Positions 35,054 through 59,457 of a stretch of 64,000 nt of DNA are shown piece by piece. The notes below the pieces were generated by a model. That model saw only the letters and a program-made list of their open reading frames with translations. It was not told the origin of the DNA and ran no database searches. Where the stretch lies: the NCBI RefSeq assembly GCF_003334355.1, contig NZ_QOWP01000009.1. One strand, written 5' to 3'. The stretch's first letter is position 1. Each line of letters begins with the position of its first letter. Both the position numbers and the translations under genes were made by a program. This DNA comes from Escherichia coli. GTDB lineage: Bacteria; Pseudomonadota; Gammaproteobacteria; Enterobacterales; Enterobacteriaceae.

Positions 35054-35548
35054 TTATGAACAACTGTCCATGATTTCGTTTAAGAATGAAGAGAAATCAC
35101 TAAACGAACTGAATATATTTTCTGTGCCGATATTATCTCTAATTTCAAAAAAGTTACTTTTAATGTCATAAGTAAATATTGAAATGCTATCATCCCCGAT
35201 CACTAACCGTTCTTGTAGATCAGGGTTTATGAAATCATCATTATTTCTATAAAATTCATTTACGGCAAAAAGGTTTTTAACTGAAGGTTCTGGAATCGAG
35301 AGGCTAAATAATCGTAATCCATTAACTTCGAATCCATCCATTGCTCTTAAAAAAGTAAGATAATCAGGTTGATTCTTAAAAAGAATACTAACTTCATTAC
35401 ATAACTTCTCCAGGCAATTAGTTGAATTAGAATTAAATTCTATTTGGATTATACTTTCAATAAATGATTCCTTGAGCGGTGCTTCAAATGGATAGTCTAA
35501 ATCATTCATCATTTTTATTAATTTATTTATTTGGGTTTTAGTCATCAT
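35054..35548 (-). CDS. yrhA: Putative immunity protein for the YhhZ nuclease toxin (intact YrhA-like, 164 aa)
   Basis: 164 aa acidic ORF immediately downstream of yhhZ with ATGA start/stop overlap (35545..35548); AT-rich; position matches yrhA. Immunity role is inferred from the gene arrangement. Confidence 0.7.
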   Translation of the reverse strand: MMTKTQINKLIKMMNDLDYPFEAPLKESFIESIIQIEFNSNSTNCLEKLCNEVSILFKNQPDYLTFLRAMDGFEVNGLRLFSLSIPEPSVKNLFAVNEFYRNNDDFINPDLQERLVIGDDSISIFTYDIKSNFFEIRDNIGTENIFSSFSDFSSFLNEIMDSCS

Positions 35549-36723
35549 TTTGTGTGGTCCATAATATTTTTCATGGGAGGATAAATTGAGCCAGATGGAA
35601 TGGCCCAGGGAGTGATTTTGCTTTCACCTACTAATATTCCCTTAGCTATTCGTGATTGTATGTTAGTAAAAACTTTATGATATGGTTCGTTTTCGATTAA
35701 TACTAAATTTTCGAAATCATTAGTACCACCATCATCTAGAGATAGTTTATGGTGAACATTATAATTTAGAGGAACATTGCCCTTTCTCATTCTTAAAAGG
35801 TCTTCGGCGTTGAATCTTCCAGATGCTTCGGAGGTTTTTGCAAGTTTGATAAGAAAATTTTTTCTTACAGTTTTATTAAACTCCTTTCGTAAGTTAGCTA
35901 AGTCTTTTGAAGGTCTCTTAATGTATATTATTTCTATTATGTCTATACCATCAAGAAGTTTTTGTTGACCTCTAAGTTTGCCTAAGTAACTATTTATTTC
36001 TGTATATGTATCAACATTATAACGCTTTGTTAAAAGAATAGATGCTGTTGCTATCGCTATGCCCGCTGTTTTTTCATTTAGTATTTGATCATAGCCTTTT
36101 ATTGCATCTCCACCCAGTTTTTCCGCAGTATCTCTGAATCCTTCAATGTTCCCATTGTATACGCCACCAGCAGCAAGTAGCCTGCCAATAGCTTTGCTGT
36201 TTAACGTTTTGAAACGATTATTTGTTTGGTTTTTTGAATTTGGTAAAAACAAACGGTTATAATTTTCAGGGAGTGCCAAATAGCTGAACTCGGTATTTGC
36301 GATAAGATGTTGACAGAGGATAAATTCATAACTAATAGTTATTTTTTCTGTATCCAGTTGGTTTTCAATGATCTGGTGATGAATAGCCGATAAAAAAGCG
36401 CCTCTTAGTTGTATATAATAATACTTTTCCCATCTACCAAATCTATTTATTCGATAGAAGTCAAATCCCATAAATAATTGTTCATTATTGTTAATGGAAT
36501 TAATAAATAATGGAGTGCTTTTATCAATTAATTTACAAAATGTTATACCATGGAACTGTGAACCAAGCCCCGTATTATTAATATTATTTAAGAGTGAGAA
36601 TGTAAATGTTTCATCCTCATGCCCGCTCTGCCAACGATTACCTGTAGACTCAGAAGTCCCACAACCTGCGGAGATGCTTCCTTGTTGTTCTCCCGTTACT
36701 GTCAGGTAAACAATATTACTCAT
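35545..36723 (-). CDS. yhhZ: Hcp-domain protein fused to C-terminal HNH nuclease (Hcp-ET-like orphan T6SS effector)
   Basis: 392 aa ORF; N-terminal ~160 aa shows the Hcp pattern (MSNIVYLTVTGEQQGS...KLIDKSTPLF), C-terminus carries an HNH/beta-beta-alpha-Me motif (NYNVHHKLSLDDGGTNDFENLVLIENEPYH); markedly AT-rich versus flanking genes. Confidence 0.85.
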   Translation of the reverse strand: MSNIVYLTVTGEQQGSISAGCGTSESTGNRWQSGHEDETFTFSLLNNINNTGLGSQFHGITFCKLIDKSTPLFINSINNNEQLFMGFDFYRINRFGRWEKYYYIQLRGAFLSAIHHQIIENQLDTEKITISYEFILCQHLIANTEFSYLALPENYNRLFLPNSKNQTNNRFKTLNSKAIGRLLAAGGVYNGNIEGFRDTAEKLGGDAIKGYDQILNEKTAGIAIATASILLTKRYNVDTYTEINSYLGKLRGQQKLLDGIDIIEIIYIKRPSKDLANLRKEFNKTVRKNFLIKLAKTSEASGRFNAEDLLRMRKGNVPLNYNVHHKLSLDDGGTNDFENLVLIENEPYHKVFTNIQSRIAKGILVGESKITPWAIPSGSIYPPMKNIMDHTK

Positions 36724-51985: not shown

Positions 51986-54451
<2,466 letters not shown>

Positions 54452-54566: not shown

Positions 54567-56083
54567 ATGGAAAGAATAATGCAAAACAGAAAATGGATTT
54601 TGACCTCGCTGGTAATGACTTTTTTCGGCATCCCCATTCTGGCGCAGTTTTTGGCGGCGGTTATTGCCATGCTGGGTGTCGGACTTGCCGGTATTATTGA
54701 AGTTTGTAATATCTTTATCACGCCAACAATTTACCTTCTGCTCAACGTCTTTATGCTGACGCTGGGGGCGATAATAATATTTTTCTCTGGTCGCGTGTGG
54801 GCCGGTGATAGCGCGCCAGAAAACAGAGAAATAGCCGTCTGGCGGCAATGCTTTTTTCTCTTACCCGCGCTATTAACCCTGGTTGGCTGGATAATCACGC
54901 TACATCTGGCAGATTATCAATTTCGCCAGATGGGAGCTGGTTGGTTGGCAAACCTTATGCTTCCCTGGTTGGCGTTTTTTTAGTCTCATTAGTGGGTGGT
55001 GAGTACTGGTGGATGGTCATTATTCCCGTTGGGGCGCATATCAGTTTTTCGCTGGGATACGCCTGGCCGACCAGATATCCTTTATCCGGCACGTCCGGAC
55101 TACGTTGCCGTAACTTACTCCTGTTTCTACTTCTCTTACTTGGTATTGTCGCCGGGTATCAGGCCCATTTATATAAGCAGCAAAATCCTGGTGTCGGTGT
55201 ACGCGAAAATATTGATATCTGGGCCTGGCGACCCGATAAACTCAATAATCGACTGACGCCGCTGCGTGGCAAACCGCAAATTCAGTTTAGGCAAAACTGG
55301 CCGCGAATCGATGGCGCCACGGCTGCGTACCCAATTTATGCTTCTGCATTTTATGCATTAAGTGTAATACCAGAGGATTTTCACGTTTGGGATTATCTGG
55401 AAAACTCTCGTACGCCAGAAGCATATAACAAAATCGTTAAGGGCGATGCTGATATTATTTTCGTGGCGCAACCTTCCGGTGGGCAAAAAAAACGTGCAAA
55501 GGAATCTGGTGTCACTTTGCTGTACACCCCCTTTGCCCGTGAAGCATTCGTTTTCATCGTCAATGCGGATAATCCGGTTAATTCCCTGACTGAACAACAG
55601 GTGCGTGACATTTTCAGTGGTGCAATTACCAATTGGCGTGCTGTTGGCGGTAACGATCAGGAGATCCAGACCTGGCAGCGCCCGGAAGACTCTGGCAGCC
55701 AGACAGTGATGCAATCACAGGTCATGAAAAATGTCCGCATGATCTCGCCGCAGGAAACGAAAGTGGCAAGCGTGATGGAGGGAATGATTAAAGTCGTTGC
55801 CGAATACCGTAATACAAACAACGCAATAGGCTATACCTTCCGCTATTACGCGACGCAAATGAATGCTGATAAAAATATAAAATTGCTAGCGATTAACGGT
55901 ATTACACCGACGGCGGAAAACATTCGCAACGGCAAATATGCGTACATCGTCGATGCATTTATGGTGACGAGAGAAAATACAACGTCAGAAACACAAAAAC
56001 TGGTCGAATGGTTTTTAACGCCGCAGGGGCAGAGTCTGGTAGAAGATGTGGGATATGTGCCGCTGTATCCAACAATGGAATAA
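54567..56083 (+). pseudogene. Membrane-anchored PstS-like periplasmic-binding-domain protein, apparently disrupted by a +1 frameshift at a T7 tract (yzgL-like locus)
   Basis: Frame A ORF 54567..54983 (multi-TM) ends at TAG inside a T7 run (54975..54981); frame B ORF 54848..56083 continues with TM-like segments and a C-terminal PBP/PstS-like domain (DSGSQT..AIGYTFRYY..YVPLY). One extra T would fuse them into a single ~505-aa ORF. TATAAT at 54544..54549. Confidence 0.5.
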
Positions 56084-56108: not shown

Positions 56109-57101
56109 ATGAATAAATTCACCGGTGTTTTACTATTAGGCACGGCGTTACTGGCGGGATGTGTCGACCGGGAAGGGTACTATAACAGCGTTAGGGAAGA
56201 AGAGAGCCATGGACTGACGTCTCTGCGGGGGCAACCTGCATTACGTTACAGCGATGATTGGTCAAGATGGCCGAGAGTGTACGGCGCTACAGCCTTATAC
56301 CCGCTGTATGCCTCCGCGTATTATAAATTAGTACCCGAGCCAAAAGATAAGGATCGAACCTCGCTGGCCTGGCAGGCGTATGGTTTGCAGCAAACCCGAA
56401 CAGCTGAAGCCTACGATAGTCTGATTAAAGGTTCCGCGACGGTTATTTTTGTTGCACAACCGTCGGAAGGACAGAAAAAACGTGCAGAAGAAGCGGGTGT
56501 TAAACTGAAATATACCGCTTTCGCCCGCGAAGCCTTTGTCTTTATCGTTGATATTAATAACCCGGTAAATTCTCTCTCTGAGCACCAGGTTAAAGATATT
56601 TTTAGCGGCAAAACTAGCCGCTGGAATAAAGTAGGTGGTAGTGACGAACATATAAAAGTCTGGCAGCGCCCTGAAGATTCTGGAAGCCAAACGATTATGA
56701 AGGGGTTGGTTATGCAAGACACCCCAATGCTGCCAGCTAAAAAATCCACTGTGATTGATCTTATGGGCGGTTTAATTACTGAAGTTGCCGACTATCAAAA
56801 CACGCCATCTTCCATTGGGTACACCTTCCACTATTACGTCACTCGTATGAATGACAATATGCTCAAAATGCGCAAGCAGATTAAACTTTTGGCTATAAAT
56901 GGCGTTGCGCCTACCGAGGAAAATATCCGCAACGGCACTTATCCATACATTGTGGATGCCTATATGGTGACGCGTGAAAATCCCACGCCGGAAACGCAGA
57001 AATTTGTTGACTGGTTTATAAGTCAGCAGGGGCAACAGTTGGTAGAGGATGTGGGGTATGTGCCGCTGTATGAAGCATCCCCCGAATCATCAGGACAATA
57101 A
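56109..57101 (+). CDS. Lipoprotein with PstS-like periplasmic substrate-binding domain (paralog of the upstream gene's C-terminal domain)
   Basis: ORF track 56046..57101; start at ATG 56109 (MNKFTGVLLLGTALLAGC lipobox) after AAAGGA; the domain aligns by eye with 54848..56083 (AREAFVFIV, NPVNSL, WQRPEDSGSQT, IGYTF.YY, LLAINGV.PT.ENIRNG, VEDVGYVPLY). Confidence 0.7.
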   Translation: MNKFTGVLLLGTALLAGCVDREGYYNSVREEESHGLTSLRGQPALRYSDDWSRWPRVYGATALYPLYASAYYKLVPEPKDKDRTSLAWQAYGLQQTRTAEAYDSLIKGSATVIFVAQPSEGQKKRAEEAGVKLKYTAFAREAFVFIVDINNPVNSLSEHQVKDIFSGKTSRWNKVGGSDEHIKVWQRPEDSGSQTIMKGLVMQDTPMLPAKKSTVIDLMGGLITEVADYQNTPSSIGYTFHYYVTRMNDNMLKMRKQIKLLAINGVAPTEENIRNGTYPYIVDAYMVTRENPTPETQKFVDWFISQQGQQLVEDVGYVPLYEASPESSGQ

Positions 57102-57703
57102 TGATGAATATAATCAGACTTTATATTTATCCGTTATTTCTCGGCTTTGTTATTGTGCCGTTGTTGGTGTGGCCGATGGTGGTTGCGCTGGCTGCTTGTA
57201 TTATCACGCTGAGTTTTCTGGGGGAAATGCTGTTCTCAATCCCGCTCATGATCAGGCGTATTTCACTTCTGCAATTACAACTTTGGTTATCGGCTGAATA
57301 TGCGCTTTTCTTCTGTGTAATGTGTTGCGTTGGTTGGCAATTTACTCGTAGAACTCAATCTGAATTGAAAAGCAGGCTCCATTGTTGATTGGTATTCGCA
57401 CCGATCTATTTATGGTTGATCCTCTGGAATATCATTTTTTACATCGCGCCAGCGAAAATTGCGTTGCTGGAAAGTATCCGCAATTTCTTTCTGCTTGTTG
57501 TCTGGCTACCCCTGAATTTTTCGCCATTTTGGCCTCAGCCGTGGACGGATTTTATCGGTCCAATAAGCGCACAGCTTGGTTTTGCGTTGGGATATTATTG
57601 CCAGTGGTGCAGCAAAAATAGATGCCAGATACGGAAGTTGAGTGAGTGGGGAACGTGCTTAAGTTTTGTTACGTTGGGTATGATGGCGTGGGCTTTGCGG
57701 TAA
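57101..57703 (+). pseudogene. Small polytopic membrane protein ORF interrupted by an in-frame TGA (two ORF-track pieces 57101..57388 and 57389..57703)
   Basis: ATG 57101 overlaps the stop of the upstream lipoprotein gene (TAATG); ORF reads through to TGA at 57386..57388 and continues in the same frame from 57389 to 57703. The distal part (GPISAQLGFALGYYCQW) resembles the membrane segment of 54567..56083 (PVGAHISFSLGYAWPTR). Confidence 0.35.
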
Positions 57704-57747
57704 TTCCCTGAATCAAAAAGTAGGTCAGATTGTTGACAACGTGGCGC

Positions 57748-57846
57748 TTTGTTCATGCCTGATGCGGCGCGAACGCCTTATCAGGCCTACAAAATCATGC
57801 AAATTCAATATATTGTATAAACAACGTAGGCCAGATAAGCGTAGCG
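57748..57846. repeat. REP/BIME: two inverted REP units downstream of glpD
   Basis: GCCTGATGCGGCGCGAACGCCTTATCAGGCCTACA (57748..57782) and CGTAGGCCAGATAAGCGTAGCGCATCTGGCA (57816..57846); a 10-bp stem hairpin follows at 57870..57893. Confidence 0.85.
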
Positions 57847-57918: not shown

Positions 57919-59424
57919 TCACGACGCCAGCGACAGCTTCTGCTGCGTATACTCCACCAGCCACTGACTCACACGAGATTGTTGATCCGCATTTAGCCAC
58001 ATGCCTTGTTTTGTGCGACGCCACAGGGCGTCGTCGGCGCGGCGGACCCATTCGTGATCCACCAGGTATTTCAGCTCCGCTTCGTAGAACTCATGACCGA
58101 AATCTTCCCCGAGATCGCTTACCGTTCCCGCATTGCCGAGCAGCAGCTCGCTGTTGCTGCCGTAAGTGCGAGCGTAATGACGCGCCAGCGATTCAGTCAG
58201 GAACGGATAGCGGCGGCGCAGGCGAGCGGCATAATCGTCGCGGTCGCCTTCAATGGCGCCACCCGGTAGCACACTCTCTTTCGTCCATGCCGGGCCAATA
58301 CCCTGATAATACGGCGTTAGTTTTTCCAGCGCATGTTCCGCCAGTTTTCGGTAGGTGGTCAGCTTACCGCCGAATACCGACAGCAGCGGTGCTTTGCCAT
58401 TTTCATCATGAATATCAAGGGTGTAATCACGGGTAATAGCCTGCGGCGAGTCGGACTCATCATCACACAGCGGACGCACACCGGAGTAGGTCCAGACGAT
58501 ATCGTCACGGCTTAACTGCTTTTTAAAGTGCGTGTTATACACATTCAGCAGGTAATTGATTTCACTCTCTTCAATCTTCACCGCTTTCGGATCGCCTTTG
58601 TACTCGACATCGGTAGTGCCGATGATGGAAAACTCGTCCATCCACGGGATCACGAACACAATACGTTTATCTTCGTTTTGCAGAATGTAGGCTTGCTTCT
58701 GGGTATGCACGCGCGGCACCACAATATGGCTGCCTTTGATCAGGCGAATGCCATAAGGCGAAGGCAGATGCATCCCGTCGTCGAAGAACTGTTTCACCCA
58801 CGGGCCGGTGGCGTTAACCAAGCCGCGCGCTTGCCAGCTATATTTTTTGCCGGTATCGATATCTTCCGCTTCCACAATCCACAGGCCGTTTTCGCGGCGA
58901 GCAGAGGTGGCGCGAGTCCGAGTAAGCACTTCGCCGCCTTTACGCACCACCATCTGGGCGTTGGCGAGTACCAGACGGGCGTCGTCTACCCAACAGTCAG
59001 AATATTCGAATCCGCGCTTAATTTCCGGTTTTAACACTGAATTTGCGCCAAAACGCAAACCAGTTGATCCCGGCAAGCTGGTGCGTTTACCCAGATGATC
59101 GTACATAAACAGACCAATGCGAATCATCCACGCCGGGCGCAGATGCGGACGATGTGGCAGGCGAAAACGCATCGGGAAGGCGATATGCGGGGCCATTTTC
59201 AGCAGCACTTCACGTTCAGCCAGCGCCTCGCTGACCAGGCGGAATTCATAGTGCTCAAGGTAGCGCAGGCCACCGTGAATGAGTTTTGAACTGGCGGAAG
59301 AGGTCGCGCAAGCGAGATCCTGCGCCTCCAGCATCAGCACGGATAAACCGCGTCCAGCGGCGTCTGCCGCGATACCAGCACCATTGATGCCGCCCCCTAT
59401 CACAATCAGATCTTTGGTTTCCAT
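57919..59424 (-). CDS. glpD: Aerobic glycerol-3-phosphate dehydrogenase GlpD
   Basis: ORF track 57919..59439; start at internal Met (METKDLIVIGGGINGAG, FAD-binding GxGxxG) gives 501 aa. Confidence 0.94.
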   Translation of the reverse strand: METKDLIVIGGGINGAGIAADAAGRGLSVLMLEAQDLACATSSASSKLIHGGLRYLEHYEFRLVSEALAEREVLLKMAPHIAFPMRFRLPHRPHLRPAWMIRIGLFMYDHLGKRTSLPGSTGLRFGANSVLKPEIKRGFEYSDCWVDDARLVLANAQMVVRKGGEVLTRTRATSARRENGLWIVEAEDIDTGKKYSWQARGLVNATGPWVKQFFDDGMHLPSPYGIRLIKGSHIVVPRVHTQKQAYILQNEDKRIVFVIPWMDEFSIIGTTDVEYKGDPKAVKIEESEINYLLNVYNTHFKKQLSRDDIVWTYSGVRPLCDDESDSPQAITRDYTLDIHDENGKAPLLSVFGGKLTTYRKLAEHALEKLTPYYQGIGPAWTKESVLPGGAIEGDRDDYAARLRRRYPFLTESLARHYARTYGSNSELLLGNAGTVSDLGEDFGHEFYEAELKYLVDHEWVRRADDALWRRTKQGMWLNADQQSRVSQWLVEYTQQKLSLAS

Positions 59425-59457
59425 GCTGCCCTCATTCACTTTCGTTAAAGCTCATAA

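Follow-up and report, generated by a model that had tools for sequence, protein, structure and literature searches.

Can a membrane-protein gene that is cut in two by an in-frame TGA still be understood as one gene, and what would such a stop codon mean for its product? The question is raised by positions 57101-57703 of a 64,000-nt stretch of Escherichia coli DNA (contig NZ_QOWP01000009.1), to which we refer as the window. Here, we compared this locus with intact homologs, searched genomes and metagenomes for the same allele and weighed several explanations for the internal stop codon.

Results

An interrupted reading frame between glgP and glpD

As the first-pass annotation had stated, and as can be read directly from the sequence, the ORF at 57101..57388 ends at a TGA and the same frame is open to 57703. 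Counted from 57101, the frame comprises 95 codons (MMNIIRLY...KSRLHC), the TGA at 57386-57388 and, beginning with a TTG at 57389, 104 further codons up to a TAA ending at 57703, which amounts to 200 in all. Exactly this interval, 57101-57703, is covered by one continuous CDS of 196-201 aa in eight E. coli alleles, so the two halves of the frame are not a chance juxtaposition. The overlap of the first ATG with the preceding stop codon (TAATG), also pointed out earlier, was confirmed with one nuance. The ATG at 57101-57103 has its A in common with the TAA at 57099-57101 of the upstream gene; this ATG is, however, particular to the allele type of the window (AAG to ATG), and it is the second ATG, at 57104 and 2 nt past the upstream stop, that all allele types share as a start. 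The latter is probably the conserved start of the gene family, named ybl142 for historical reasons after E. coli B annotations. An AGGA Shine-Dalgarno motif is located at 57092-57095, and the close juxtaposition of stop and start codon is kept across the island allele types.

The surrounding ORFs are glgP (52004-54451), glpD (57919-59439, minus strand), glpE, glpG, glpR and rtcR. With glgP and glpD as flanking genes, the locus is identified as the glgP–glpD accessory island of E. coli. According to RefSeq, ATCC 8739, TUM17668 and many other strains carry three genes from glgP to glpD, which code for a 502-aa 'PstS family' protein, a 330-aa 'PstS family' lipoprotein and a 200-aa hypothetical protein; we refer to them as genes 1 to 3, gene 3 being ybl142. 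Genes 1 and 2 both hit PF12849 (E 4.6e-28); with TIGR02136 they show a partial match of approximately 120 bits, below the cut-off of 206.6. REP-like elements delimit the island on its downstream side (Table 1).

Table 1 Features of the glgP–glpD island in the window.
Feature	Position	Strand	Remarks
Island gene 1: polytopic membrane domain fused to PBP_like_2 (502 aa intact)	54576..56083	+	Frameshifted, premature stop at 54981-54983
Island gene 2: intact 330-aa PstS-family (PBP_like_2) lipoprotein	56109..57101	+	Identical to WP_001032214.1
5' fragment of the ybl142-family gene	57101..57385	+	Codons 1-95, three predicted hydrophobic helices and K/R-rich loop
Premature stop TGA	57386..57388	+	TGG (Trp96) in ATCC 8739, TUM17668 and all other alleles examined; +4 base T
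3' fragment of the ybl142-family gene	57389..57703	+	Codons 97-200 plus TAA
REP-like palindromic elements, spacer before glpD	57719..57833	.	Matches to Rfam naRNA4 and ES036, below the gathering score

Seen across strains, the island is a mosaic (loci L004 and L012-L015), in which ybl142 is constant beside glpD and its upstream partners vary. These are either the PstS-like lipoprotein or a pair of hypothetical proteins of 236 aa and 255/258 aa; the TM–PBP fusion or a fimbrial operon may accompany them or be missing. The last approximately 20 nt of the upstream gene, the Shine-Dalgarno motif and the start codon are kept across island types, which suggests a recombination junction just upstream of ybl142. 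Elsewhere in the window (35054-36723, minus strand), an intact gene codes for a 392-aa Hcp/TssD-like protein with an HNH-like C-terminal extension; the 164-aa ORF behind it may code for an immunity protein. ATCC 8739 harbours an IS1 element and a truncated tssD pseudogene at this spot.

The stop codon takes the place of a conserved tryptophan codon

The complete genome nearest to the window is that of ATCC 8739, with six differing positions over 11 kb, and a 5-kb query from the window was 99.9% identical to E. coli ATCC 8739 and relatives. At the stop codon, the sole difference from ATCC 8739 and TUM17668 is an A instead of a G at 57388, i.e. TGA for TGG (Trp96). All eight E. coli alleles examined at the DNA level, which cover four island architectures, have TGG here, as part of H-(C/Y)-W-L-V. 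When 16 full-length family members from E. coli, E. albertii, E. marmotae and cryptic clades were aligned, Trp96 was present in every one of them. Every Escherichia homolog examined has Trp at this position and a single divergent metagenome homolog, P0130, has Gly; Cys or Sec was never found there.

The read-through translation differs from the ATCC 8739 protein WP_000981056.1 at two positions only, W96* and V102I. The latter (57404 G to A) is a nonsynonymous change in the distal fragment at an otherwise invariant residue. R170C (57608) was considered as a further case of drift behind the stop and was dropped, since ATCC 8739 has R170C in an intact gene; thus, only V102I is specific to the lineage of the window. 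With a single extra substitution distal to the stop, the lesion is young and relaxed constraint cannot be demonstrated. Three of the six differences from ATCC 8739 are located in 2.1 of the 11 kb, too few events for significance.

The first-pass annotation had read the two ORFs as one ancestral gene broken by a nonsense codon and had named TGG among the possible original codons. Alignment with intact homologs supports this reading, as the TGA replaces a sense TGG. The homologs are single proteins of approximately 200 aa, not pairs of small proteins separated by a conserved stop. A sense codon just one substitution away in the orthologs, together with a stop that is restricted to a sub-lineage and not conserved, is the pattern of a nonsense pseudogene. 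Hence, we propose with high confidence that a lineage-specific TGG-to-TGA nonsense mutation has made a pseudogene, or at the very most a leaky allele, out of an uncharacterised accessory gene for a membrane protein.

Occurrence of the TGA allele in genomes and metagenomes

How widespread is the allele? Of the 230 complete genomes to which a 75-nt probe spanning the stop could be matched, 227 differed from it by exactly one mismatch and none was identical; the TGA is thus present in none of these 230 genomes. Employing a degenerate 37-mer with A or G at the polymorphic site, we found six JGI/ENA metagenome contigs, and all six have G. A product identical to the 95-aa fragment is recorded in Logan assemblies of public sequencing runs. 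One of these contigs (L005, ERR4578542) has the TGA and is 100% identical to the window over 10.3 kb. A second one (L006, SRR36641858) has the TGA on a TUM17668-like background, with 55 mismatches to the window in 6.1 kb (99.1% identity) and an IS1 end inside gene 2, and a third Logan contig (L007) likewise has the TGA.

These contigs bear on one alternative, namely that the stop is a sequencing or assembly error at 57388. A single-base difference from the nearest complete genome is what such an error would look like. We rejected this explanation and regard it as extremely unlikely, given that independent SRA (Logan) assemblies also have the TGA: the same A recurs in contigs from several independent runs, and two of the contigs have backgrounds that can be told apart.

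Three further short Logan contigs 'encoding' the 95-aa product (L008-L010) were left out of the TGA count since they end at 57385-57387, before the SNP. They are metagenome contigs from different samples, and each breaks off immediately ahead of the polymorphic base 57388, as would be expected from an assembly-graph bubble if TGG and TGA strains co-occur in a sample.

At sites 57388 and 57608, all four allele combinations are found among the window, L006, ATCC 8739 and TUM17668. The TGA is hence located on at least two haplotype backgrounds and has either moved by recombination or arisen more than once. In case of recurrent mutation, this would hint at selection rather than neutral decay.

Two half-proteins or a recoded codon?

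Could the interrupted frame still yield a functional product in two pieces? Termination at the UGA might be followed by re-initiation at the adjacent UUG (57389), and two half-proteins would then assemble in the membrane. UGA and UUG directly abut, the break falls within a K/R-rich loop between predicted helices, and split membrane proteins can tolerate breaks in inter-helix loops. However, UUG is a weak start codon, and a Shine-Dalgarno motif at a workable distance is lacking, as the sole purine-rich motif (AAGCAGG, 57370-57376) is located 12 nt from the TTG. Within the distal half, an in-frame ATG occurs only among the last residues. Gene callers left the distal ORF uncalled, its 104-aa sequence was not found in a collection of 15 billion proteins, and the two-gene organisation occurs in no homolog. 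We therefore consider a split gene very unlikely.

Programmed recoding of the UGA, be it as selenocysteine or otherwise, is next to impossible in our assessment. E. coli possesses the Sec machinery, and the in-frame UGA is preceded by Cys95; nothing else speaks in favour of this reading. The homologs have Trp (TGG) at the position of the UGA, not Cys or Sec, and the TGG alleles of ATCC 8739 and TUM17668 share the sequence that follows the UGA, except at window position 57404. Folding of the 60 nt from the UGA onward gave no SECIS-like structure (MFE −10.9 kcal/mol, z = −1.09), with 31 of 200 shuffled sequences folding as well, and Rfam yielded no RNA family match inside the ybl142 gene. Recoding is thus effectively refuted and was rejected. 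Measured against bacterial selenoproteins, the locus has neither a UGA aligned with Sec/Cys nor a SECIS hairpin immediately 3' of the UGA.

Proposed consequence of the stop codon

We propose the following scenario for the nonsense allele. One G-to-A transition in the lineage of the window turned the conserved Trp96 codon TGG into TGA. Translation starts at 57101/57104, tightly coupled to the upstream gene of the PstS-like lipoprotein, and RF2 would terminate at 57386-57388 to release a 95-residue N-terminal fragment with three predicted helices. The distal 104 codons would remain essentially untranslated, and the C-terminal half of the protein would be lost. Low-rate misreading of the UGA by Trp-tRNA(Trp) might still provide the exact wild-type protein from a small percentage of ribosomes at most. 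Judging from termination and Trp misreading, we infer that the TGA allele is a strong hypomorph or null and not a recoding device. As a UGA read by Trp-tRNA(Trp) rebuilds the wild-type residue, a severe hypomorph rather than a strict null is conceivable.

But, why should the TGA not be kept precisely for this residual activity? As a functional leaky stop, it would supply a reduced and variable dose of wild-type protein by Trp-tRNA(Trp) read-through, along with the N-terminal fragment. UGA is the leakiest stop codon in E. coli, and competition of Trp-tRNA(Trp) with RF2 is measurable, with a read-through of approximately 2-4% in a K-12 reporter (PMC10570021). Insertion of Trp would restore the ancestral Trp96, and the TGA is found on more than one background. 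Against this stands the base after the TGA (+4), which is a U; according to PMC5289835, this context lowers read-through in E. coli and supports the most efficient termination. Furthermore, the allele was absent from the 230 complete genomes matched by the probe (0/230) and from the six metagenome contigs (0/6), the same strain carries a frameshift in gene 1, and in other strains ybl142 has fallen to IS1 or to a deletion. Given the lesions across the island and the rarity of the allele, the pattern looks like loss rather than tuning, and we judge a functional leaky stop unlikely.

The intact protein family and its relation to gene 1

In ATCC 8739, the interval of window positions 57101-57703 is one intact 200-aa CDS (WP_000981056.1, ECOLC_RS01535, 'hypothetical'), and the intact ortholog of TUM17668 is WP_000981057.1. 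Intact Ybl142 is hydrophobic and helical, with approximately 5-7 predicted membrane segments, and codon 96 is located at the end of the K/R-rich loop (residues 83-92) between predicted helices. From its sequence, Ybl142 is predicted to be an Escherichia-restricted polytopic inner-membrane protein of approximately 200 aa. The copy in the window shares the full-length colinear similarity of the family and the position as last island gene, with a start within 2 nt of the upstream stop. Its frame is interrupted by the TGA at codon 96, which makes it a pseudogene allele of the Ybl142 family and not an intact member.

Family annotation gave no match for Ybl142 in Pfam (DUF6768, E 1.1), NCBIfam (19 bits against a cut-off of 120), PADLOC or PDB, and an AlphaFold2 model was unreliable (pLDDT 44.5, pTM 0.30). 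In the literature, we found no papers for 'ybl142', and 'yzgL', a gene name from the same island in K-12, only in passing. A search of 1.84 billion representatives with an HMM profile led to 42 matches. Apart from P0130, the matches listed were mostly short or partial, and the few inspected were fragments or frameshifted forms of the Escherichia family. P0130 (184 aa) is the sole clearly divergent Ybl142 homolog and is encoded on metagenome scaffold BECK22-1 (L011, ERZ28569670, 121-1499). Its gene overlaps by 13 nt a 278-aa gene, the product of which is 49% identical to the 258-aa partner preceding ybl142 in islands of the E. coli 536 type. This neighbourhood indicates that a conserved two-gene module exists beyond the type I island.

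Across intact ybl142 alleles, dN/dS is 0.2-0.3, indicating that intact ybl142 is a real coding gene under moderate purifying selection. Within E. coli, the alleles of loci L001-L016 differ by dS of 0.24-1.0 and dN of 0.06-0.19, compared to the adjacent glpD with a dS of 0.04-0.24 and a dN not exceeding 0.008. This divergence may be due to old allelic lineages, to import from other species or to diversifying selection.

The first-pass annotation had also seen a resemblance between the distal half of the interrupted gene and the TM region of its upstream paralog. BLASTP of Ybl142 against gene 1 gave no significant match (E=2.5), and a single-sequence hhalign comparison was weak (probability 3%). 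We therefore compared profiles, employing the Ybl142 alignment plus P0130 on one side and an alignment of the N-terminal domain of gene 1 on the other. Residues 1-170 of Ybl142 were colinear with residues 1-167 of gene 1 over 156-161 columns (26% identity, probability 71%, P 3.7e-5, score 37.4). The reversed control scored 16.7, and none of 200 block-shuffled controls reached the real score (maximum 31.1). Both share the motif P(I/V)(S/G)A(Q/H)(L/I)(G/S)F(A/S)LGY. Homology of Ybl142 to the membrane domain of gene 1 is thus probable, but not proven. The similarity noted earlier holds as a remote, profile-level one; its restriction to the distal half does not, since it spans residues 1-170. With the binding protein followed by the membrane protein, genes 2 and 3 look like a split and permuted counterpart of gene 1, in which the membrane domain precedes the binding protein.

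Discussion

Decay of the island

The stop at Trp96 is part of a general decay of the island, with a frameshift in gene 1 of the same strain, IS1 insertions elsewhere and a deletion in K-12. In gene 1, one G was lost from a GGG run at approximately 54968-54970, a 1-bp deletion compared to ATCC 8739, and the resulting frameshift splits the 502-aa gene into ORFs of 138 aa and 411 aa. An 81-nt probe across this lesion matched 694 complete genomes, none of them exactly, and the 462 best matches differ by one 1-nt gap (the extra G); the deletion is thus present in none of the 694 genomes matched. Strain BKQ37E (L015, NZ_CP170328.1, 906-5430) has independent IS1 insertions in genes 1 and 3 and an intact gene 2, i.e. 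the same two genes are hit as in the window. This may hint at a functional link between the two membrane-domain genes, or it may be coincidence. L006 carries IS1 in gene 2, and many database entries of the gene 1 and ybl142 families are truncated or frameshifted. The glgP–glpD region has been described as a hotspot of structural variation in E. coli (PMC13185298).

A more far-reaching idea is that genes 1 and 3, the membrane domains of which appear to be paralogous, cooperate in a membrane module that is specific to Escherichia and serves to tether PstS-like binding proteins, and that the two genes are counter-selected together in some niches, in which case the lesions would not be neutral. 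The combination of frameshift and nonsense mutation in the window, the double IS1 insertion of BKQ37E in the same genes and the TGA on two haplotypes, where recurrent mutation may have placed it, are hints in this direction; we nevertheless regard it as a speculative and rather improbable reading. If true, Trp read-through would leave carriers of the UGA allele with wild-type protein at the percent level, and diversifying or balancing selection on an envelope function would account for the divergence of the island, with a dS of up to 1.0 against a maximum of 0.24 in glpD.

For annotation, our results imply that 57101..57703 should be described as one pseudogene of the ybl142 family with an internal stop instead of two small ORFs, and that island gene 1 should be marked as frameshifted. 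As a phenomenon, the nonsense allele is ordinary, one more example of the recurrent loss of the glgP–glpD island in E. coli. The wider interest relates to the uncharacterised island, where a TM/PstS-like fusion occurs side by side with a PstS-like lipoprotein and with the membrane domain as a protein of its own, and which is Escherichia-restricted and unusually divergent between strains. On the island itself, the stop codon of the window adds nothing new.

Comparison with known systems

The neighbours of ybl142 carry the label 'phosphate ABC transporter', which invites comparison with PstSCAB. A binding domain of the PstS/PBP_like_2 type is present, but an adjacent permease and ATPase, with Ybl142 in the role of a PstC/PstA-type permease, are not. 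With only three genes between glgP and glpD, the island contains no ABC permease or ATPase genes, and the label thus reflects a domain and not a demonstrated system. Within the island, the closest relative of Ybl142 would be the N-terminal polytopic membrane domain of gene 1 (approximately 170 aa of a TM–PBP_like_2 fusion), with which it is colinear in the profile comparison. Unlike the product of gene 1, Ybl142 stands alone without a binding-protein domain, and the two show no similarity at the BLASTP level.

With leaky UGA stops of E. coli, the locus has in common the UGA itself and a near-cognate tRNA that would insert the ancestral residue. It differs in that the stop is not conserved and its +4 U is unfavourable (PMC5289835).

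The intact orthologs WP_000981056.1 and WP_000981057.1 occupy the same locus between the gene of the PstS-like lipoprotein and glpD, and agree in start, length and frame; with TGA for TGG at codon 96, the allele of the window is a pseudogene or hypomorph. In E. coli K-12, yzgL, annotated as a partial gene or pseudogene between glgP and glpD, is a remnant of the same island and corresponds to the first approximately 74 codons of gene 1. Downstream of yzgL, the last approximately 115 nt of the ybl142 region survive. K-12 has lost almost the entire island by a deletion of approximately 2.9 kb that reaches the 3' end of ybl142, whereas in the window all three genes are still present and two of them, genes 1 and 3, have point lesions.
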